Part shown: one piece after another, positions 1 to 10,114 of the stretch | Numbering within the stretch: the first letter of the stretch is position 1 | Layout of the letters: each line of letters opens with the position of its first letter | From: a virus | Taxonomy: Duplodnaviria; Heunggongvirae; Uroviricota; Caudoviricetes | Strand: one strand, 5' to 3' | DNA: 12,734 nucleotides | Virus record (IMG/VR): IMGVR_UViG_2548876862_000016 | The notes under the pieces: model-generated | The model's input: the letters and a program-made list of their open reading frames with translations, nothing else | What the model was told of the DNA's origin: nothing | Database searches by the model: none | Translations under genes and position numbers: made by a program

Positions 1-55
1 ATGATGCCAGTTAGCCGTTATCTCTGCATTTTCATAAACGTTGGTTTGGGAGAAG
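1..55. repeat. Left inverted repeat of the invertible tail-fibre segment (55/55 identical to the reverse complement of 1942-1996)
   Basis: Base-by-base comparison: 1-55 equals the reverse complement of 1942-1996; identity stops at position 56/1941. The repeat starts at the window edge, so its outer limit on the left cannot be seen. Confidence 0.9.
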
Positions 56-432
56 CGGCAACGAGGAACGTCGGAACGGATACCGGGCAAGTACCAGATA
101 TGAGTAGTTTTACAACGGGGTATTCTGGAGCAGCAAACTGGCCGAATAGTAAATCTGGATGGAGTAAGGGGCCGGATGGGGTAATTACACAATGGGGTAT
201 TTTCGGTTTCCCCGTTGGACAGACAGGGACGAATGTTGTTTTCCCGCTACCTTTCCCCGCGCGGGTCGAATCAATTACACTGACAATGGCAGATATCCAG
301 GAGTCTCTGCTTTCTCCAACAACCATGCCTGCTTATGGAGTTAACTCAACTGGTACTTCAAGAACGGGTTTTACAGCCCGTATGTCAGGCGTCGGTGGGT
401 TTAATCTTTGCTATATAGCGAAAGGGAGATAA
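1..432 (+). CDS. Tail-fibre C-terminal variable cassette A (receptor-binding part), probably fused in frame to a constant N-terminal part upstream of the window; 5' end likely incomplete
   Basis: Only frame 1 is open through the inverted repeat; the ORF runs to a stop at 430-432 and is followed 4 nt later by a tail-fibre assembly gene with a GGGAGA ribosome-binding site. Same strand as the tail operon. Confidence 0.65.
   Translation: MMPVSRYLCIFINVGLGEAATRNVGTDTGQVPDMSSFTTGYSGAANWPNSKSGWSKGPDGVITQWGIFGFPVGQTGTNVVFPLPFPARVESITLTMADIQESLLSPTTMPAYGVNSTGTSRTGFTARMSGVGGFNLCYIAKGR
29..54. other. hix/gix-like 26-bp invertase crossover site (left)
   Basis: TTTTCATAAACGTTGGTTTGGGAGAA; its reverse complement TTCTCCCAAACCAACGTTTATGAAAA matches the remembered hixL sequence TTCTTGAAAACCAAGGTTTTTGATAA at 20 of 26 positions, including the AAACC / central AA / GTTT core. 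Confidence 0.7.
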
Positions 433-436
433 CAGA

Positions 437-880
437 ATGAATAAAGTTAAAAGTGTTTACAGCCCGTCCGAAAATGCAATCTACAACGCAGCGCTATATG
501 AAAGTTATATCAAGGAGGGGGCATGGCCGCAGGATGGTATTGAAATCAGCGATGAGGATGCTGTCAGATTTAATGGGGGAAATAAGCCAACAGGAAAAAT
601 GCTGGGAATGGTTTCAGGGACCCTTGCATGGGTTGATGAGCCGCCGCTTTCACCAGAACAGAAAATATCAGATGCAGAAAACATGAAAGCCACATTTCGT
701 GCAAAAGCTGACAGTGAAATATCCTGGCGTCAGGATGCTGTTGATGCTGGTATCGCAACTGATGAAGAAACTTCAACTCTCACCCAATGGAAGAAATACC
801 GTGTGCTGCTGATGCGTGTTGATACGTCAACAGCACCCGATATTGAATGGCCTACGCCTCCGGCAGCTCAGGCCAGATGA
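437..880 (+). CDS. Tail-fibre assembly chaperone (Tfa, P2 G / Mu U family), partner of cassette A
   Basis: 147 aa; C-terminal motif ...RVDTSTAPDIEWPTPP typical of Tfa proteins; GGGAGA ribosome-binding site 8 nt upstream of the ATG. Confidence 0.85.
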   Translation: MNKVKSVYSPSENAIYNAALYESYIKEGAWPQDGIEISDEDAVRFNGGNKPTGKMLGMVSGTLAWVDEPPLSPEQKISDAENMKATFRAKADSEISWRQDAVDAGIATDEETSTLTQWKKYRVLLMRVDTSTAPDIEWPTPPAAQAR

Positions 881-1457
881 CATCAGGCGCGGTGCTGGTA
901 TCTGTTGCCGTCACCGCGTCAATGTAATCCAGCACGACGTTAAGTCGGGTTGTTTCTGCCGGCGTCAACTTCCGTCCGGCCTGTAATTTCAACTGAATCA
1001 GACTAATGGAAGCTATTGCAGTATCCATCAGCGACTGGCGCTGTGCTTCTGCTGCATCTACTGCGGCGCTATGCTGTGCCTCGGTATCCGTCACCCATTT
1101 CTCACCATCCCATTTATCGTATGGCGTTAACGGGGCTATAGTGGTTGTATTTTCGGGGTAATCACCCGGAGTTGTGATTTCTTTGGCGTCTCCCGTTTCG
1201 GTGTTATAGACGATTTCACCGCGATGGTCTGGCACATATTCCCATGAGTTTAAATCTGCCGAACGGCAGATTGCATAACCAGCCTTATGTATACCAGGTT
1301 CATCCAGACAGGAATATGCCGGAATACCAACACCTACAGCAAGAAATTCGGTTGATGCAGAAATATATTCCCTTGTCTCACTGTTATAGTTGTAAACGAT
1401 AATGTTTCCTTCCTGTACGGCAATAAGCTCATTGTTTAATATCGCGTTATTCATCAT
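852..1457 (-). CDS. tfaE: Tail-fibre assembly chaperone (TfaE-like), partner of cassette B
   Basis: 201 aa starting MMNNAILNNEL... with C-terminal ...LDYIDAVTATDTSTAPDVIWPELPEA; closely resembles the e14 prophage TfaE as I remember it. Its ATG overlaps the stop of the upstream cassette (ATGA). Confidence 0.8.
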   Translation of the reverse strand: MMNNAILNNELIAVQEGNIIVYNYNSETREYISASTEFLAVGVGIPAYSCLDEPGIHKAGYAICRSADLNSWEYVPDHRGEIVYNTETGDAKEITTPGDYPENTTTIAPLTPYDKWDGEKWVTDTEAQHSAAVDAAEAQRQSLMDTAIASISLIQLKLQAGRKLTPAETTRLNVVLDYIDAVTATDTSTAPDVIWPELPEA

Positions 1458-1996
1458 GCAGCTCTCACAATATAGTTAAATGCAATATTTCGCGGGCGTG
1501 TTTCATTTGTTCCGTATGCTGTTGTTCTTTGGTTGCCGACAAAATATCCATTTGGATTCGAAGATACAGAGTAATCATCAAAATCAAGTGGACTATCAGC
1601 GCCCGGAGTCAGACTGGCAATATATCCTCTACCCATAACTTCTGATGCTGGTATTTCTTTTGTACGATAATCACTGACTCTGAATATCTGCCCCTGATGA
1701 GTATGTAATTCTACCCCTCCATTCTGAATACTTAGCAGCGTACGTTCTGCATCAATGCCGCGCCCATCATCCCAGCCACGAATAAACTCACCGCGTAAAT
1801 CAGGCAGTTTATTTGTCGGATAAGCCTTTGCCAGTTTAGGATATTCAACGGCAGAAAATACTGCACCGTTGCATTTCAGCCAGCCTGTCGGCGGCGTAGC
1901 TGAAGGCCACGGAACTATCACGCCAACAGGCAACGCAGAACCTTCTCCCAAACCAACGTTTATGAAAATGCAGAGATAACGGCTAACTGGCATCAT
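1454..1996 (-). CDS. Tail-fibre C-terminal variable cassette B with phage tail-collar-like domain; silent in the present orientation
   Basis: 180 aa containing PVGVIVPWP...PTGWLKCNGAVFS...LPDLRGEFIRGWDDGRGID, the tail-collar signature. Begins with the same 18 inverted-repeat-encoded residues as cassette A; an in-frame stop (2006-2008 on the minus strand) lies just upstream. Confidence 0.8.
   Translation of the reverse strand: MMPVSRYLCIFINVGLGEGSALPVGVIVPWPSATPPTGWLKCNGAVFSAVEYPKLAKAYPTNKLPDLRGEFIRGWDDGRGIDAERTLLSIQNGGVELHTHQGQIFRVSDYRTKEIPASEVMGRGYIASLTPGADSPLDFDDYSVSSNPNGYFVGNQRTTAYGTNETRPRNIAFNYIVRAA
1942..1996. repeat. Right inverted repeat of the invertible segment
   Basis: Reverse complement is identical to 1-55. 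Confidence 0.9.
1943..1968. other. hix/gix-like 26-bp invertase crossover site (right)
   Basis: TTCTCCCAAACCAACGTTTATGAAAA; 12-bp half sites flank the central AA at 1955-1956. Confidence 0.7.
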
Positions 1997-2023
1997 CCCC
2001 GGTTTTTATTCAGGGGATTGATC

Positions 2024-2590
2024 ATGCTTATTGGCTATGTACGCGTGTCAACAAATGACCAGAACACCGATTTGCAACGTAATGCACTGAACTGCGCGGG
2101 ATGTGAGCGGATTTTTGAGGACAAAATCAGTGGCACTAAGTCCGACAGACCGGGGCTGAAAAAACTACTCAGGACACTATCGGCAGGAGACACGCTGGTT
2201 GTCTGGAAGCTGGACAGGTTGGGGCGCAGTATGCGGCATCTTGTTACGCTGATAGAAGAGTTGCGCCAGCGTGGTGTGAATTTCAGAAGCCTGACTGACA
2301 GTATTGATACCAGTACCCCAATGGGCCGTTTCTTTTTTCATGTCATGGGTGCCCTGGCTGAAATGGAACGCGAACTGATAGTTGAACGTACCAGGGCAGG
2401 GCTGGCTGCAGCTCGTGCCAAAGGCAGAGTAGGTGGACGCCGTCCTAAGTTGACCACCGAACAGTGGGCACAGATTGGGCGTTTACTCGAGGCCGGAGAA
2501 TCAAGACAGCGTATTGCACTGATTTTTGATGTAGGCGTTTCTACCATTTATAGAAAATTTCCGGCAAATAAGATCAATGAATCCCCCTGA
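2024..2590 (+). CDS. pin: Site-specific DNA invertase, serine recombinase of the Gin/Pin/Cin/Hin family
   Basis: MLIGYVRVSTNDQNTDLQRNALNCAGCE...LVVWKLDRLGRSMRHL...GRFFFHVMGALAEMERELIVERT...GRRPKL...STIYR matches the invertase family almost residue for residue, with the catalytic Ser in YVRVSTNDQ and a C-terminal helix-turn-helix. The ORF track starts at TTG 2018; ATG 2024, 7 nt after GGGG, gives the canonical MLIGY N-terminus. Confidence 0.95.
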   Translation: MLIGYVRVSTNDQNTDLQRNALNCAGCERIFEDKISGTKSDRPGLKKLLRTLSAGDTLVVWKLDRLGRSMRHLVTLIEELRQRGVNFRSLTDSIDTSTPMGRFFFHVMGALAEMERELIVERTRAGLAAARAKGRVGGRRPKLTTEQWAQIGRLLEAGESRQRIALIFDVGVSTIYRKFPANKINESP

Positions 2591-2638
2591 ATCAGCATTA
2601 TGTTGATTATCCCTGCAAGCAGACAAATACCGTTATTT

Positions 2639-2656
2639 TGTGTGAATAACGACACA
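2639..2656 (+). promoter_or_regulatory. Candidate Ogr-dependent P2 late promoter element (TGT-N12-ACA) for the FI operon
   Basis: TGTGTGAATAACGACACA, dyad centred about 85 bp upstream of the FI ATG; P2 late promoters carry this motif near -55. No strong -10 hexamer could be picked out. Confidence 0.45.
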
Positions 2657-2732
2657 ACTGCGCTTAGCTGTTTGTCAGGCACAATCACTTCAACATAGGG
2701 CGAAGCCTAATCCAATCAGGAGGTTCGCCACT

Positions 2733-3905
2733 ATGGCTCAGGATTACCACCACGGGGTGCGCGTTGTTGAAGTCAACGAAGGCACCCGATCTATTACCAC
2801 GGTGAGCACCGCCATCGTGGGTATGGTCTGCACGGGCGATGATGCCGATGCAAAAATGTTTCCTCTTAATAAACCCGTGCTGATCACTGATGTGCTGACT
2901 GCCAGCGGTAAAGCGGGTGAGTCAGGTACTCTGGCCCGTTCGCTGGATGCCATCGCTGACCAGGCAAAACCCGTGACCATTGTTGTGCGTGTGCCGCAGG
3001 GTGAAACGGAAGACGAAACCACGACCAATATCATCGGCGCAGTGACCGCTGAAGGTAAAAAAACAGGTATGAAAGCCCTGTTATCTGCCCAGTCACAGCT
3101 CGGCGTTAAACCGCGCATTCTCGGCGTGCCAGGCCACGACACCAAGGCGGTAGCTACTGAGTTGCTGAGCGTGGCGCAAAGCCTGCGTGGATTTGCTTAC
3201 CTGTCAGCGTATGGCTGCAAGACAGTGCAGGAGGCGATCACTTACCGCGAAAACTTCAGCCAGCGCGAAGGGATGCTGATCTGGCCTGACTTTACTGGCT
3301 GGGACACGGTGCTGAATGCCGAAGCAACGGCATATGCCACCGCCCGTGCGCTTGGTCTGCGCGCCAAAATTGACGAGCAGACCGGATGGCACAAAAGCCT
3401 GTCCAACGTGGGCGTGAACGGTGTCACCGGAATTTCTGCAGATGTGTTCTGGGATCTGCAGGACCCGGCAACCGATGCAGGTCTGCTGAACCAGAACGAC
3501 GTCACCACGCTTGTGCGTAAAGACGGTTTCCGCTTCTGGGGTTCCCGCTGCCTGAGTGATGACCCGCTCTTTGCCTTCGAAAACTACACCCGCACGGCGC
3601 AGGTGCTGATGGACACGATGGCAGAAGCACACATGTGGGCGGTGGATAAACCGCTTAACCCGTCGCTGGCCCGCGACATTATCGAAGGTATCCGCGCCAA
3701 AATGCGCAGCCTGGTCAGTCAGGGCTATCTCATTGGTGGTGATTGCTGGCTGGATGAGTCGGTGAACGACAAAGACACGCTGAAAGCCGGAAAACTCACC
3801 ATCGACTACGACTACACGCCAGTGCCGCCACTTGAAAACCTGATGCTGCGTCAGCGCATCACCGATCAGTACCTGGTGAATTTCGCCAGCCAGGTCAGCG
3901 CGTAA
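2733..3905 (+). CDS. FI: Contractile tail sheath protein (P2 gpFI)
   Basis: 390 aa, P2 FI-like in size and sequence; AGGAGG 9 nt upstream of the ATG; first gene of the FI-FII-E-T-U-D block. Confidence 0.95.
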
Positions 3906-3914
3906 GGGGACAAC

Positions 3915-4430
3915 ATGGCTTTACCACGCAAATTAAAACACCTGAACCTGTTTAACGACGGGAACAACTGGCAGGGGATCGTTGAGTCGCTGACGCTGCC
4001 GAAATTTACCCGCAAATATGAGAAGTATCGCGGCGGCGGAATGCCGGGTGCGGTGGATGTGGATCTGGGGCTTGATGACAGTGCGCTGGACACAGAATTT
4101 TCCATTGGTGGTACTGAATTGCTGCTGTTTAAACAGATGGGTAAAGCCACGGTGGATGGCATCCAGCTGCGCTTTACCGGCTCTATTCAGCGTGACGATA
4201 CCGGGGAAGTGCAGGCCGTGGAGCTTGTCGTGCGTGGACGTCACAAAGAAGTGGATTCCGGCGAGTGGAAGACGGGCGAAAGCAACACCACCAAAGTGAC
4301 CAGTACCAACAGCTACGCGAAGCTGACCATCAATGGTGAGGTGCTCTATGAAGTGGACCTTATCAACATGGTGGAAATTGTGGACGGTGTGGACCTGATG
4401 GAAGCGCACCGCAACGCCCTCGGCCTCTGA
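3915..4430 (+). CDS. FII: Tail tube protein (P2 gpFII)
   Basis: 171 aa, P2 FII-like; starts 9 nt after the FI stop, with a GGGGA ribosome-binding site. Confidence 0.95.
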   Translation: MALPRKLKHLNLFNDGNNWQGIVESLTLPKFTRKYEKYRGGGMPGAVDVDLGLDDSALDTEFSIGGTELLLFKQMGKATVDGIQLRFTGSIQRDDTGEVQAVELVVRGRHKEVDSGEWKTGESNTTKVTSTNSYAKLTINGEVLYEVDLINMVEIVDGVDLMEAHRNALGL

Positions 4431-4440
4431 TATATCTGAA

Positions 4441-4459
4441 CGGCGCGGGATACCGCGCC
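4441..4459 (+). other. GC-rich hairpin in the FII-E intergenic region (7-bp stem, GATA loop), no U-tract
   Basis: GGCGCGG-GATA-CCGCGCC at 4442-4459; followed by AGAACCC rather than a T-run, so not a classic intrinsic terminator. Confidence 0.4.
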
Positions 4460-4484
4460 AGAACCCAATTGACAGGACAGCAAA

Positions 4485-4787
4485 ATGAGCGATAAGCAGA
4501 CTGAAAAGACCATTCAACTGGATACCCCCATCAAGCGCGGTAAAACAGAAATCACCGAAATTGTGCTGCGTAAACCGCAGTCCGGTGCGCTGCGCGGTAC
4601 ACGCCTGCAGGCCATTATGGATATGGATGTAAACGCGATGATGACCGTGATCCCCCGCATCTCCAGTCCGGCACTGACTGCACAGGAAATTGCAGAGATG
4701 GACCCGGCAGATCTCACTGCCATGTCGGTTGAGGTTGTCACTTTTTTGTTGAAGAAGTCGGTGCTTGCCGGTTTACCGACAGCCTGA
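4485..4787 (+). CDS. E: Tail assembly chaperone (P2 gpE)
   Basis: 100-aa ORF in the P2 position between FII and T; contains the slippery heptamer near its 3' end. Confidence 0.85.
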   Translation: MSDKQTEKTIQLDTPIKRGKTEITEIVLRKPQSGALRGTRLQAIMDMDVNAMMTVIPRISSPALTAQEIAEMDPADLTAMSVEVVTFLLKKSVLAGLPTA

Positions 4788-4921
4788 CGGTTGACGATCT
4801 GGTGGCAGATATCGCCACCATTTTTCACTGGCCGCCATCCGTTACTGACGTTATGCCGCTGACCGAAGTGCTGGAATGGCGGTATAAAGCGATTCAGAGA
4901 AGCGGGGCCAACGATGAGTGA
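4485..4921 (+). CDS. E+E': Tail assembly chaperone frameshift product (P2 gpE+E'), made by a -1 ribosomal frameshift at 4742-4748
   Basis: T_TTT_TTG lies in the E frame (codons ACT TTT TTG). After a -1 slip the reading frame stays open from 4748 to a TGA at 4919-4921, giving about 145 aa (P2 E+E' is 142 aa) and overlapping the T start codon at 4914. Confidence 0.75.
4742..4748 (+). promoter_or_regulatory. Programmed -1 frameshift slippery heptamer TTTTTTG
   Basis: X_XXY_YYZ heptamer in the correct phase, at the conserved position for the tail-chaperone frameshift. Confidence 0.75.
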
Positions 4922-7900
4922 TAACAGCCTGCGTCTGCAGGTCATTCTTAATGCGGTTGACAAGCTCACCCGCCCATTTCGATCTGCGCAGGCCAGTTCA
5001 AGAGAACTGGCTGCTGCTGTCAAAAAATCCCGCGATGCAATAAAGCAGCTTGATCAGGCCGGGAGCAGTCTGGACAGCTTCCGAAAGCTGCAGGCAGAAA
5101 ATCAGAAATTAGGCGACAGGCTGAACTATGCCCGCCAGCGTGCAAATTTGCTCAGTCAGGAACTGGGAGCGATGGGGCCGCCTTCGCAACGTCAGGTTGT
5201 TGCTCTGGGCCGTCAACGGCTGGCTGTTCAGCGCCTGGAAGAACGCCAGAAAAAGCTGCAGCAGCAGACGGCGCTTGTGCGTGCTGAACTGTACCGGGCG
5301 GGAATTTCTGCGAAAGACGATGCGGGAGCAACTGCCCGTTTAGCCCGTGAAACATCACGTTATAACCAGGAACTTTCGAAACAGGAGGCGCGGCTGAAGC
5401 GACTGGGGGAAGCTCAGCGCAGGATGAATGCAGCGCGTGCCAGTTATGCCCGTTCGCTGGAGGTGCGTGATCGTATTGCAGGTGCCGGAGCCACCACCAC
5501 GGCTGCAGGGCTGGCAATGGGTGCGCCAGTGATGGCGGCAGTAAAAAGCTATACCAGCATGGAAGATGCCATGAAAGGTGTGGCAAAGCAGGTCAATGGT
5601 CTGCGTGACGATAATGGCAACCGCACTGCACGTTTTTATGAAATGCAGGATGCCATCAAGGCTGCCAGCGAACAGTTGCCGATGGAAAACGGTGCGGTGG
5701 ACTTCGCTGCACTGGTTGAAGGTGGTGCGCGCATGAACGTCGCAAACCCTGACGACAGCTGGGAAGATCAGAAACGTGACCTGCTGGCCTTCGCCAGTAC
5801 GGCAGCAAAGGCGGCAACAGCCTTTGAGCTGCCAGCGGATGAACTGTCAGAAAGTCTGGGGAAAATCGCCCAGCTCTACAAAATCCCCACCCGCAATATT
5901 GAACAGCTCGGTGATGCGCTGAACTATCTGGATGATAACGCCATGTCGAAAGGGGCAGACATCATTGATGTGATGCAACGTCTGGGCGGTGTGGCTGACC
6001 GTCTGGATTATCGTAAAGCGGCGGCGCTGGGTTCCACCTTCCTGACACTGGGCGCTGCGCCAGAGGTTGCAGCCAGTGCAGCAAACGCGATGGTGCGTGA
6101 ATTGTCCATTGCCACCATGCAAAGCAAGAGTTTCTTTGAAGGGATGAATCTGCTGAAACTCAATCCTGAAGTGATTGAAAAGCAGATGACGAAGGATGCG
6201 ATGGGAACCATCCAGCGCGTGCTGGAGAAGGTAAACGCGCTGCCGCAGGACAAGCGCCTGTCTGCCATGACTATGTTGTTTGGTAAAGAGTTTGGCGATG
6301 ACGCGGCGAAACTGGCAAACAACCTGCCGGAACTGCAGCGTCAGTTAAAACTGACAGCGGGCAATGATGCGCTCGGCTCCATGCAGAAAGAATCCGACAT
6401 TAACAAGGATTCACTTTCTGCGCAGTGGTTGCTGGTCAAAACCGGAGCGCAGAACACCTTCAGCAGCCTGGGCGAAACGCTGCGCCAGCCGCTGATGGAT
6501 ATTCTGTACACGGTGAAAAGCGTCACGGGGGCGTTGCGTCGCTGGGTGGAAGCTAACCCGGAACTGACAGGCACACTGATGAAAGCATCGGCTGTTGTGG
6601 CTGCGGTTACCGTCGGCCTCGGCACCTTAGCGGTGGCGCTGGCTGCAGTGCTGGGGCCGCTGGCAGTGATCCGTCTGGGATTCTCTGTGTTGGGTATCAA
6701 AACGTTATCTTCCGTTACGGCAGCAGTAACTCGAACCAGCAGCGCGTTGTCCTGGCTGGCTGGCGCACCACTGGCACTGCTGCGACGCGGGCTTGCTTCA
6801 TCGGGCAACGCCGCAGGTTTACTTACTGCGCCGTTGTCGTCTTTGCGCCGCACGGCATCACTGACGGGAAATGTCCTGAAAACTGTAGCAGGTGCGCCGG
6901 TTGCACTTTTGCGGTCTGGATTATCCGGTTTACGTGCTGTTGCTGTGATGTTTATGAATCCTCTGGCGGTACTGCGCGGTGGACTGGCTGCCGCAGGCAC
7001 GGTGCTGCGAGTACTGGCATCTGGTCCACTGGCGATGCTGCGCGTTGCCCTGTATGCCATATCTGGTCTGTTAGGTGCTCTGCTCAGTCCAATAGGTCTT
7101 GTGGTTACTGCACTGGCGGGCGTGGCGCTGGTTGTCTGGAAATACTGGCAACCCATCACCGCATTTCTCGGTGGCGTGGTGGAAGGATTCAAAGCGGCGG
7201 CAGGTCCCATCAGTGCAGCGTTCGAACCGCTTAAGCCCGTGTTCCAGTGGATTGGCGACAAAGTGCAGGCGCTGTGGGGCTGGTTTACTGAACTGCTGAC
7301 GCCCGTTAAGTCGACCTCTGCCGAACTGCAGAGCGCAGCGGCAATGGGGCGACGATTCGGGGAGGCACTGACAGAAGGGCTGAATATGGTCATGCATCCG
7401 CTGGACTCCCTGAAATCCGGCGTTTCCTGGTTGCTGGAGAAACTCGGCATTGTCAGTAAAGAGGCTGCAAAGGCGAAACTGCCGGAAAGCGTGACGCGTC
7501 AGCAACCTGCGACGGTGAATGCAGACGGTAAAGTGATGATGTCATCGGGTGATTTTCCGTCATGGGGATATGGCTTTGCGGGGATGTATGACAGCGGCGG
7601 CTATATCCCGCGCGGGCAGTTTGGCATCGTCGGTGAAAACGGGCCGGAAATTGTTAACGGCCCGGCAAACGTGACCAGCCGGAGAAATACAGCTGCACTG
7701 GCTGCCGTTGTCGCCGGAATGATGGGTGTTGCTGCCGCGCCAGCAGAGCTTCCACCGTTGCATCCTTTGGCGCTTCCCGCAAAAGGCGGTGAAGCGATGG
7801 TGAGTCGTGCAGCTACTGTGCCGCCCATTTACCGGATTGAAGCACCGACGCAGATCATCATCCAGACACAGCCAGGACAAAGTGCGCAGGATATTGCGCG

Positions 7901-7991
7901 GGAGGTGGCCCGCCAGCTTGATGAACGTGAACGCAGGCTGAAGGCAAAAGCCAGGAGTAACTACAGCGATCAGGGGGGATACGACGCATGA
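4914..7991 (+). CDS. T: Tail tape measure protein (P2 gpT)
   Basis: 1025 aa; coiled-coil-like N-terminal third, central hydrophobic repeat region, Gly-rich C-terminal part; lies between E/E' and U. Confidence 0.95.
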   Translation: MSDNSLRLQVILNAVDKLTRPFRSAQASSRELAAAVKKSRDAIKQLDQAGSSLDSFRKLQAENQKLGDRLNYARQRANLLSQELGAMGPPSQRQVVALGRQRLAVQRLEERQKKLQQQTALVRAELYRAGISAKDDAGATARLARETSRYNQELSKQEARLKRLGEAQRRMNAARASYARSLEVRDRIAGAGATTTAAGLAMGAPVMAAVKSYTSMEDAMKGVAKQVNGLRDDNGNRTARFYEMQDAIKAASEQLPMENGAVDFAALVEGGARMNVANPDDSWEDQKRDLLAFASTAAKAATAFELPADELSESLGKIAQLYKIPTRNIEQLGDALNYLDDNAMSKGADIIDVMQRLGGVADRLDYRKAAALGSTFLTLGAAPEVAASAANAMVRELSIATMQSKSFFEGMNLLKLNPEVIEKQMTKDAMGTIQRVLEKVNALPQDKRLSAMTMLFGKEFGDDAAKLANNLPELQRQLKLTAGNDALGSMQKESDINKDSLSAQWLLVKTGAQNTFSSLGETLRQPLMDILYTVKSVTGALRRWVEANPELTGTLMKASAVVAAVTVGLGTLAVALAAVLGPLAVIRLGFSVLGIKTLSSVTAAVTRTSSALSWLAGAPLALLRRGLASSGNAAGLLTAPLSSLRRTASLTGNVLKTVAGAPVALLRSGLSGLRAVAVMFMNPLAVLRGGLAAAGTVLRVLASGPLAMLRVALYAISGLLGALLSPIGLVVTALAGVALVVWKYWQPITAFLGGVVEGFKAAAGPISAAFEPLKPVFQWIGDKVQALWGWFTELLTPVKSTSAELQSAAAMGRRFGEALTEGLNMVMHPLDSLKSGVSWLLEKLGIVSKEAAKAKLPESVTRQQPATVNADGKVMMSSGDFPSWGYGFAGMYDSGGYIPRGQFGIVGENGPEIVNGPANVTSRRNTAALAAVVAGMMGVAAAPAELPPLHPLALPAKGGEAMVSRAATVPPIYRIEAPTQIIIQTQPGQSAQDIAREVARQLDERERRLKAKARSNYSDQGGYDA
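6765..7055 (+). repeat. Five degenerate tandem repeats (63-66 nt period) inside T, encoding a hydrophobic 21-22 aa unit (x-P-L-A/S-x-L-R-x-G-L)
   Basis: Repeat units start near 6765, 6828, 6894, 6957 and 7023: APLALLRRGL / APLSSLRRTASL / APVALLRSGL / NPLAVLRGGL / GPLAMLRVAL. Confidence 0.7.
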
Positions 7992-8473
7992 TGATGGTGC
8001 TGGGATTGTACGTGTTTATGCTGCGCACCGTGCCGTATCAGGAGCTGCAGTATCAACGCAGCTGGCGACATGCGGCAAACAGCCGGGTAAACCGACGTCC
8101 GTCCACGCAGTTTCTGGGACCGGACAACGACATGCTGACGCTTTCCGGTGTTCTTATGCCGGAGATAACAGGTGGCAGGCTGTCGTTGCTGGCACTGGAG
8201 CAGATGGCAGAACAGGGGAAAGCATGGCCCCTGATTGAAGGCAGTGGCACGATTTATGGCATGTATGTGATTGAGGGACTGAATCAGACTAAAACGGAGT
8301 TTTTCCGCGACGGTATGCCGCGCCGGATTGAGTTCACCCTGTCGCTCAAACGGGTGGATGAATCCCTGTCCGATATATTCGGTGATCTCAGTGCGCAACT
8401 GAATAATCTGCAGGACACAGCAACGTCTGCCTTAAGCGATATCAGTAAAACGGTGGGAGGGCTGCTGTCATGA
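7988..8473 (+). CDS. U: Tail protein (P2 gpU)
   Basis: 161 aa (P2 U is about 159 aa); ATGA overlap with the T stop; three consecutive ATG codons at 7988-7996. Confidence 0.9.
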   Translation: MMMVLGLYVFMLRTVPYQELQYQRSWRHAANSRVNRRPSTQFLGPDNDMLTLSGVLMPEITGGRLSLLALEQMAEQGKAWPLIEGSGTIYGMYVIEGLNQTKTEFFRDGMPRRIEFTLSLKRVDESLSDIFGDLSAQLNNLQDTATSALSDISKTVGGLLS

Positions 8474-9660: not shown

Positions 9661-9879
9661 ATGATGATTTGCCCACTGTGTGGAAGTGCCGCCCATACTC
9701 GCAGCAGTTTTCAGGTATCTTCATTGACCAAAGAGCGTTACAACCAGTGCCAGAACATTAACTGCAGCCATACTTTTGTTACCCATGAAACTTTTGTTCG
9801 TTCGATTGCAACGCCAAAAGAGTCAAATCCGGTTCAGCCGCATCCAATGAAATCAGGACAGGTGGCGCTCTCTCTTTGA
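9661..9879 (+). CDS. ogr: Late transcription activator Ogr (zinc-finger, P2 Ogr / 186 B / P4 delta family)
   Basis: CPLCGSAAHTRSS...YNQCQNINCSHTF gives the Cys4 zinc-finger pattern of Ogr. The ORF track starts at GTG 9628, but ATG 9661, 10 nt after GGGGAG, gives the canonical ~72-aa protein beginning MMICPLC. Confidence 0.85.
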   Translation: MMICPLCGSAAHTRSSFQVSSLTKERYNQCQNINCSHTFVTHETFVRSIATPKESNPVQPHPMKSGQVALSL

Positions 9880-9959
9880 CGCTGCCGCCATTTTGTCGCC
9901 ATCATTAAAAAACAGTGCTTCTAACATCATGATTTTGAATGGCATAAATTTCAGGCAAC

Positions 9960-10002
9960 AAAAAACCCATCAACCTTGAACCGAAATGGCGGGGTTGATG
10001 GG
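9960..10002 (-). terminator. Minus-strand intrinsic terminator candidate (10-bp stem, then six T)
   Basis: On the minus strand: CCCATCAACC - 17-nt loop - GGTTGATGGG followed by TTTTTT; it lies 110-150 nt downstream of the ybjL stop. Confidence 0.5.
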
Positions 10003-10114
10003 CTCCACAAAATGGGGACATCAAAGAAAAGCAGTGGCACTAATTAAGACTGATGCCCTGCGGAAAAGTTCTGCGGTTGTGCAAAAAAATTTCATTTTCA
10101 GGGCAACTTCAGTT

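Follow-up and report, generated by a model that had tools for sequence, protein, structure and literature searches.

What occupies the interval between the tail-fibre genes and the tail sheath gene FI of a P2-like prophage, and is it a slot for exchangeable cargo or a working part of the fibre system? The question is raised by the first 3905 nucleotides of a 12,734-nucleotide stretch of viral DNA (IMG/VR record IMGVR_UViG_2548876862_000016; the whole stretch is called the window below), which belongs to a P2-like (Wadgaonvirus-like) E. coli prophage integrated beside rybB/ybjL. Phage P2 carries Z/fun between the fibre-assembly gene G and FI, and the module described here lies in the same slot, reaching from the fibre-assembly gene to the late promoter pF and FI. 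With a probability of about 90%, this part of the prophage is a site-specific inversion switch of the Pin/Gin type that governs host range.

The gene layout was based on open reading frame (ORF) calls and Pfam matches. Two cassettes, each consisting of a fibre tip and a chaperone, are placed head to head and fill positions 1–1996. The first lies on the plus strand and comprises Sv, an alternative C-terminal receptor-binding part of fibre H with a Gp53-like_C domain (55–432; ORF from 1/55), followed by its tail-fibre assembly chaperone, equivalent to P2 G and Mu U (437–880; Caudo_TAP, 1e-32; phrog_188). The second lies on the minus strand and comprises the chaperone Tfa′ (852–1457; Caudo_TAP), which is 84% identical to e14 TfaE and whose counterpart is named tfaE in the RefSeq annotation of relatives, and Sv′, a second alternative fibre C-terminal part with a tail Collar domain and 64% identity to e14 StfE (1454–1942), the ORF of which extends into the flank up to an ATG at 1996. 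A serine DNA invertase of the Pin/Gin family (188 aa; 2024–2590, plus strand; ORF from 2018/2024) follows, and FI (2733–3905, plus strand; 68% amino acid identity to P2 FI) opens the FI-FII-E-E′-T-U-D block. Since the invertase stops at 2590 and FI starts at 2733, the gap between them is exactly 142 bp. Rfam matched only RybB, outside the module, and no tRNA genes were found.

The invertase carries the Pfam Resolvase domain (2e-53) together with HTH_7 and aligns over its full length to the Gin structures 3UJ3 and 4M6F (E = 1e-92), with Ser9 of the catalytic domain aligned; its identity is 86.7% to e14 PinE and 76% to Mu Gin. In NCBIfam, only sub-threshold recombinase families were returned for the invertase, and the fibre parts had no match. 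The segment is flanked by inverted 26-bp crossover sites at 29–54 (plus strand) and 1943–1968 (minus strand), the right one adjoining the invertase gene and being identical to the e14 site beside pinE. In the window, the left site reads TTTTCATAAACG TT GGTTTGGGAGAA. The outer left half-site in the closed genome ESBL15 is TTCTCACATACC, and the true left site is thus TTCTCACATACC TT GGTTTGGGAGAA. Both sites have the central dinucleotide TT and stand in inverted orientation, and their pattern is hix/gix-like; the gix site of Mu, for comparison, is TTATCCAAAACC TC GGTTTACAGGAA.

In gin and hin, the enhancer lies within the 5′ portion of the gene itself. A comparison of 21 non-redundant invertase genes gives a synonymous codon identity of 0.56–0.63 in codons 1–40 (2024–2143) versus 0.31–0.48 elsewhere; this raised conservation fits an embedded cis element, as would be expected for a putative Fis-dependent enhancer within codons 1–40. 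A sigma-70-like plus-strand promoter for the invertase was not found in a scan of 1900–2800, where the counts of sigma-70 promoters and terminators did not exceed those in shuffled sequence. The terminator scan of this interval returned only a weak hairpin, at 1985–2004.

Evidence for inversion comes from near-identical prophages. In ESBL15, which is 99.9% identical to the window, Sv continues the reading frame of the H constant region to give a protein of 479 aa, and in the inverted orientation Sv′ is joined in frame to the same region, giving one of 516 aa; flipping the ESBL15 segment in silico yields in-frame H proteins of these two lengths. The second gene has been called in L168 (GCA_051437965.1), a prophage with 100% identity over 1–1956 and 1942–7996 of the window but with the segment inverted, so that it is flipped relative to both the window and ESBL15. 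The segment is thus found in both orientations among identical prophages. An orientation count in E. coli genomes was also tried with 200-nt junction probes; it gave 29 versus 407 genomes, numbers that include matches to non-invertible H genes with collar-type tips and that serve solely to establish the existence of both junction types.

Relatives in which the system has decayed would suit another reading, namely that the segment is a frozen relic in which the invertase or the sites are dead and a single fibre type is made. The invertase is frameshifted in p13P477T-2 and deleted or truncated beside pF in four other loci (L099, L104, L118 and L142), and 14 loci retain the inverted cassette in an interval that lacks the invertase. 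For the present prophage, this reading is very unlikely: the invertase ORF is intact, of full length against Gin and with Ser9 present, the two crossover sites are identical in their core and central dinucleotide, the opposite orientation occurs in a 100%-identical prophage, and the source contig itself terminates in a flipped junction.

This contig end also determines how the left edge of the window is to be read. Positions 1–40 are the reverse complement of 1957–1996, that is, a contig-terminal copy of the invertase-side flank, and bases 41–55 are a 15-nt core identical to 1942–1956. A genuine long inverted repeat, as the perfect 55-nt repeat would seem to offer, was considered and rejected; the closed relative shares only 15 of these bases, as identical positions within the 26-bp site, and the source contig starts there. 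The match to ESBL15 begins only at nucleotide 41, the H constant region preceding it; the source contig, AIBM01000029.1, starts 1 nt ahead of the window; and the flipped prophage L168 has the same junction as positions 1–40. Bases 1–40 are therefore a contig-end artefact displaying the junction of the flipped isomer, not part of gene H. Because the source contig begins 1 nt before the window and 1–40 represent the flipped junction, the window does not include the H constant region, and relatives were used to read the left half of the switch. The contig end suggests that both isomers probably coexisted in the sequenced culture. Many other draft contigs also break inside these crossover sites. 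Contig breaks and chimeric ends at such sites are a recurring assembly artefact of draft enterobacterial genomes, and they can be taken to indicate active inversion.

Taken together, a working scheme can be proposed for the switch. The constant N-terminal part of H would lie just to the left of the window and end at the 26-bp crossover site, with the second, inverted site 1.9 kb downstream beside the invertase gene. The serine invertase, presumably acting with host Fis at an enhancer within the first ~120 bp of its own gene, would invert the DNA that the two sites enclose. One orientation completes H with Sv (gp53-like tip, 479 aa), followed by the Sv chaperone; the other completes it with Sv′ (collar-domain tip, 516 aa), accompanied by the TfaE-like chaperone. 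A lysogenic population could in this way release virions of two receptor specificities. Downstream of the invertase, the 142 bp would serve the F operon as its Ogr-activated late promoter. The module as a whole probably belongs to the fibre, chaperone and invertase cassettes that circulate among P2-like, Mu, P1 and e14-type phages, a pool richer in AT than the P2-like core genes; it fills the variable Z/fun slot of P2 and is the commonest occupant in this lineage, sometimes lost or replaced.

The spacer between the invertase and FI (2591–2732, plus strand), which contains a ribosome-binding site ahead of FI, bears directly on what this slot contains. A dyad TGT-N12-ACA of the Ogr type is present at 2639–2656, about 90 bp upstream of FI; in alignment it coincides with the site annotated in P2 pF for activator binding, and no other part of the spacer is as well conserved. 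In relatives without the invertase, 2605/2607–2732 or 2635/2638–2732 is conserved. The 142 bp had been taken in the initial annotation as space left over before FI; it is instead the predicted, conserved pF late promoter, kept whatever lies upstream. The promoter is presumably activated by the product of the ogr/Delta-type zinc-finger late activator gene at 9661–9879 (plus strand; RefSeq annotation of an identical gene). The same annotation placed an e14/Mu-type module at the Z/fun position, which agrees with the invertase identities to PinE and Gin (87% and 76%), the e14 crossover site and the 84% identity of Tfa′ to TfaE. Its description of the interval between G and FI is correct in that an invertase is followed by 142 bp before FI; the interval does not hold the invertase alone, a whole second fibre and chaperone cassette being present too.

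The slot is variable among relatives, in which it contains the invertase module, a compact arrangement, an acyltransferase, a methyltransferase, a Tad2-like protein or small membrane proteins. The Z/fun genes of P2 matched only P2 itself among 168 sequences. The module is distributed patchily among phages whose FI genes are 96–99% identical, and because of this patchiness the region is mosaic, as had been proposed. The suggestion that the module carries no defence cargo also agrees with the PADLOC search, which gave no match for the window ORFs in 1–2732 or for three antisense ORFs inside the invertase gene. The absence of cargo is unremarkable; the commonest alternative state is a compact fibre-chaperone-FI order that is likewise without cargo.

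Cargo in related positions raises a different view of the recombinase. It has been suggested that small serine recombinases mark defence loci (PMC13552941). What follows the invertase is mcrA in e14, com/mom in Mu and a DNA methyltransferase in two relatives (L022 and L157), and relatives also have O-acyltransferases, a Tad2-like protein and further cargo separating the fibre genes from FI. The invertase could then be a cargo-associated small serine recombinase that marks or mobilises defence genes at Z/fun, and the present copy an emptied hotspot with no fibre switch. This deserves almost no credence, as a complete in-frame two-cassette fibre switch flanks the recombinase and fully explains its presence, PADLOC matches in the module are absent, and the invertase stop lies only 15–48 nt from the conserved promoter segment, with no cargo remnant there. 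A further proposal is that the few bases between the invertase stop and pF form a recurrent landing slot for modification or restriction cargo (mcrA, com/mom, and the N6/N4 methyltransferase of L022 and L157), the invertase module perhaps aiding capture or turnover and the prophage here representing the empty state; this, too, seems distinctly improbable.

The base composition of the module differs clearly from that of the adjoining tail genes. G+C is 0.468 for 1–1996, 0.503 for the invertase, 0.437 for the spacer and 0.559 for the FI-D block. Pooled GC3 is 0.394 in the fibre module versus 0.610 in FI-D (chi-square 92.5, p = 7e-22), with an intermediate 0.49 in the invertase, and all 300-nt windows of FI-D lie at or above the module mean. 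The AT-richness that the initial annotation saw in the fibre module relative to FI-D is thus confirmed, the two regions differing in the G+C comparison; the separate acquisition that it was thought to indicate does not follow. The drop in GC3 starts inside H, at the boundary between the constant and variable parts, and P2 shows the same drop (distal H 0.38, G 0.40); similarly, in invertase-free relatives, the chaperone has a GC3 of 0.38–0.46 against 0.64–0.66 for FI. Across P2-like phages, distal fibre and chaperone genes are generally low in G+C, which gives no acquisition date for the module. Because P2 and invertase-free relatives share it, low GC3 is regarded as a lasting feature of the common pool of fibre cassettes rather than a timestamp, and the low G+C of fibre cassettes should not serve to date acquisitions. 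Recent acquisition by this prophage from an AT-richer donor would account for a GC3 of 0.39 in the module beside 0.61 in FI-D, and for presence and absence that vary among phages with near-identical FI. It is nevertheless unlikely, given the equally low GC3 of distal H and chaperone genes in P2 and in relatives that lack the invertase, the majority status of the invertase-FI junction (68%) across this FI lineage in E. coli, and the invertase remnants in relatives, which indicate loss as well as gain.

Of 984 complete E. coli genomes with this FI lineage, 666 have the invertase-FI junction; the module is hence not universal among related prophages. The arrangement is annotated in the deposited phages 500465-1, Cartapus, KP12, pro483 and SEN8. 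It has been reported, from sequencing and PCR, that inversion occurs in P2-like prophages of EPEC E2348/69 (PMC4272514), and this strain has the invertase-FI junction, over 2024–3300 of the window, at 96.6% identity. Z/fun is treated as a hotspot, with invertases already noted there, in a 2024 preprint (bioRxiv 10.1101/2024.10.15.618418). Rousset et al. 2022 (PMC9122126) was considered as a description of the slot and set aside; its P2 hotspot is the old/tin locus beside the portal gene gpQ. The feature is ordinary and already known, the arrangement having been annotated and reported before, and, as a textbook host-range switch at such a position, it has little value as a discovery.

Among known systems, the closest is the P segment with PinE of e14, a cryptic prophage of E. 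coli K-12, which shares the order of fibre tip, chaperone, inverted chaperone, inverted tip and invertase. The invertase (86.7%), Tfa′ (84% to TfaE) and Sv′ (64% to StfE) are all similar to their e14 counterparts, and the right crossover site is identical, with a near-identical flank. However, identity to StfP/TfaP is no more than 28–40% in the first cassette (Sv plus chaperone), and e14 is a defective lambdoid element with the restriction gene mcrA after pinE, whereas the module here sits in an apparently intact P2-like tail cluster with the F-operon promoter directly after it. The mechanism, layout and 26-bp site pattern are also shared with the G segment and Gin of Mu, as with the C segment and Cin of P1 and with Salmonella Hin; Mu Gin (3UJ3, 4M6F) is 76% identical over its full length. 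Mu differs in its central dinucleotide (TC rather than TT), in fibre cassettes that are only distantly related (chaperones 28–41%) and in a 3-kb segment with gin followed by com/mom. Escherichia phage 500465-1 (Peduoviridae, Wadgaonvirus) is 99.5% identical over 1942–3905 of the window, from the right crossover site through the invertase and spacer to FI, shares the gene order and has an annotated 'DNA invertase'; within the segment, it and the EPEC E2348/69 prophages differ in their fibre-tip and chaperone alleles. The Z/fun locus of P2 corresponds in its position relative to H/G, the Ogr-dependent pF and FI, and the slot is variable among relatives, but no Z/fun homologue is present here, and the occupant belongs to the fibre system itself instead of being a lysogenic-conversion gene.

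According to the ORF listing and Pfam scan, the window opens with a C-terminal part of the tail fibre (1/55–432, + strand, Gp53-like_C) and a fibre-assembly chaperone (437–880, +, Caudo_TAP), followed on the opposite strand by a second chaperone (852–1457, −) and a second fibre C-terminal part (1454–1996, −, tail Collar domain). A serine recombinase gene lies at 2024–2590 (+), where ATG 2024 is the start annotated in relatives and TTG 2018 that given by the ORF lister; as the initial annotation had stated, 142 bp of non-coding DNA separate its stop at 2590 from the start of FI at 2733. The P2-type tail genes run from FI (2733–3905) through FII, E/E', T, U and D (to 9570) and are followed by ogr (9661–9879). 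Between G and FI, P2 has Z/fun, encoded on the other strand, together with a terminator and the pF promoter, and the interval of the window matches this position, in agreement with the proposed placement at Z/fun. The invertase is indeed found there, but it is not the only content, as had been supposed, since a whole second fibre/chaperone cassette is also present. A prophage in the closed E. coli ESBL15 genome is 99.9% identical to the window, while Escherichia phage 500465-1 (Peduoviridae, Wadgaonvirus) is 99.5% identical over 1942–3905 and its record is annotated with the same gene order, including a "DNA invertase". Between ogr and the host genes ybjL, ybjM and grxA lies the rybB sRNA gene (9957–10035, −; Rfam RF00110, 105 bits), which thus adjoins the prophage end and is a possible target of integration. 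A 369-aa antisense ORF (6341–7450, −) within the tape-measure gene T overlaps a region where the AT skew is strongly negative (−0.2 to −0.28 at 6501–7250); it probably arises as a side effect of the composition of T.

The Mu Gin crystal structures could be aligned with the recombinase from end to end (E = 1e-92); the catalytic Ser9 is present, and sequence identity is 86.7% with e14 PinE and 76% with Gin. The crossover sites read TTyTCAyAwACs TT GGTTTGGGAGAA, the same pattern as the Mu gix site (TTATCCAAAACC TC GGTTTACAGGAA), and the right site is identical to the e14 site, which bears out the assignment to the e14/Mu type. When the segment was flipped in silico in ESBL15, H stayed in frame in both orientations, giving a product of 479 aa with a gp53-like tip or of 516 aa with a collar-domain tip, each tip followed by its own chaperone. 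In addition, a comparison of 21 non-redundant, diverse invertase genes, including gin and pinE, showed a synonymous codon identity of 0.56–0.63 in codons 1–40 (window 2024–2143) and 0.31–0.48 elsewhere, a pattern that fits a cis-acting element lying within the coding region. In gin and hin, the Fis-dependent enhancer is located within the 5' part of the gene; the conserved codons are consistent with this position, without thereby identifying Fis sites.

A perfect 55-nt inverted repeat was detected between 1–55 and 1942–1996, its extent being limited by the window start. The crossover sites of ESBL15 have only 15 identical bases in common, within a 26-bp hix/gix-like site, and homology of this prophage to the window starts only at nt 41, the sequence before this point being the H constant region, whose last residues are ...LLTYLGLGE. 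Window positions 1–40 instead repeat the invertase-side flank in reverse complement. Looking up the 143-aa product retrieved both the source contig, AIBM01000029.1 (GCA_000446785.2), which begins 1 nt before the window, and GCA_051437965.1. The first 56 nt of the source contig (window 1–56; contig coordinates 1–57) are the reverse complement of 1942–1997. GCA_051437965.1 is 100% identical to window 1–1956 and to window 1942–7996, with the former piece inverted relative to the latter; in it, a called 516-aa gene joins the H constant region to Sv', the second fibre tip, while the end of Sv abuts the invertase. Because of this arrangement, the left junction of the window belongs to the flipped isomer and the right junction to the unflipped one, and both are impossible in one molecule. 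The 15-base core alone is too short to branch an assembly graph. Most simply, the sequenced culture probably yielded reads of both isomers. Several further draft contigs likewise begin within sites of this kind (L110, L094, L032, L022, L133, L065 and L084). The left window end is thus an informative artefact of the contig end.

The fibre module is more AT-rich than the FI–D block, as had been noticed by eye: G+C is 0.468 for 1–1996, 0.503 for the invertase and 0.559 for FI–D, and pooled GC3 is 0.394 vs. 0.610 (chi-square 92.5, p = 7e-22), with none of the 300-nt windows of FI–D falling under the module mean. The initial annotation took this as a sign of separate acquisition, but the same GC3 contrast is found in P2, which lacks the invertase (distal H 0.38 and G 0.40 vs. 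FI 0.67), and in invertase-free relatives (chaperone 0.38–0.46 vs. FI 0.64–0.66). In ESBL15, GC3 is 0.58 in the constant part of H and 0.40 in the variable part, the drop starting at about codon 300, at the crossover site; the invertase gene itself is intermediate (0.49). AT-richness therefore marks distal fibre and chaperone cassettes common to unrelated phages and is uninformative on when the invertase module entered this prophage.

Alignment of the spacer with P2 and relatives revealed one strongly conserved element, TTGTGTGAATAACGACACAA (2638–2657), which contains TGT-N12-ACA at 2639–2656 and lines up with the activator-binding site annotated in the pF promoter of P2. In close relatives without the invertase, homology with the window sets in again at 2605–2607, 15–17 nt past the invertase stop; in more distant ones it resumes at 2635–2638, exactly at the dyad. 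The aligned dyad and these resumption points suggest that the spacer is the F operon late promoter, rather than space left over, and the resumption points place the right mosaic boundary directly after the invertase gene.

FI of this lineage was found in 984 of 5,426 complete E. coli genomes, and the invertase–FI junction, probed with the invertase, the spacer and the 5' half of FI, in 666, about 68% of FI carriers (coverage of at least 80% in both cases). The junction carriers include EPEC E2348/69, in whose P2-like prophages inversion has been demonstrated by experiment (PMC4272514). Among the 80 closest IMG/VR contigs, the invertase adjoins FI in 35, the interval is compact in 24 and other ORFs occupy it in 11; the corresponding numbers for 80 genomes of different species are 11, 23 and 20. 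A further 11 of the latter, most of them from Photorhabdus and Xenorhabdus, show an inverted fibre cassette without any invertase in the interval (L046, L055, L056, L060, L068, L071, L072, L074, L076, L081 and L087). In three Photorhabdus loci (L058, L062 and L086), the invertase gene precedes H and is encoded on the opposite strand, not adjoining FI. Upstream of FI, L099, L104, L118, L142 and L135 retain no more than pieces of the invertase gene or right crossover site, joined to the pF promoter region (in L099, window 1946–1977 is joined to 2605–2732), which shows decay or replacement of the module; it has therefore been lost as well as gained.

No module ORF had a PADLOC match, in line with the reported absence of defence cargo, and in the window nothing occupies the slot that immediately follows the invertase. 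This absence is less notable than had been suggested: the three junction-free relatives inspected contain fibre, chaperone and FI with a spacer of 106–133 bp and likewise no cargo. The region is mosaic, and slot content differs among relatives. Between the fibre genes and FI, nine loci (L017, L028, L104, L114, L125, L126, L153, L138 and L026) carry Acyl_transf_3 O-acyltransferases, plausibly surface-modifying lysogenic-conversion genes; others carry a Tad2-like plus DUF7823 protein (L078/L069) or small membrane proteins. Some relatives also have genes in another accessory slot, which lies between S (virion morphogenesis) and V (baseplate): a hypothetical protein and a DUF6216 protein (L006, 1755–2192, −; L007, 1391–2197, −). 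In the ESBL15 prophage this slot is empty. The initial observation is thus confirmed as to position, type and mosaicism, with G+C, the 142 bp and the lack of cargo over-read; since the feature is already known and common, its interest is low. An N6/N4 DNA methyltransferase lies between the invertase and FI in two relatives (L022, 777–1529; L157), and directly downstream of the invertase e14 has mcrA (5347–6180 of the compared locus) and Mu has com/mom (5269–6103). This recurrence of DNA-modification or restriction genes is the only loosely novel thread, of modest interest and improbable as a mechanism; the switch itself is a standard Din-family host-range switch.
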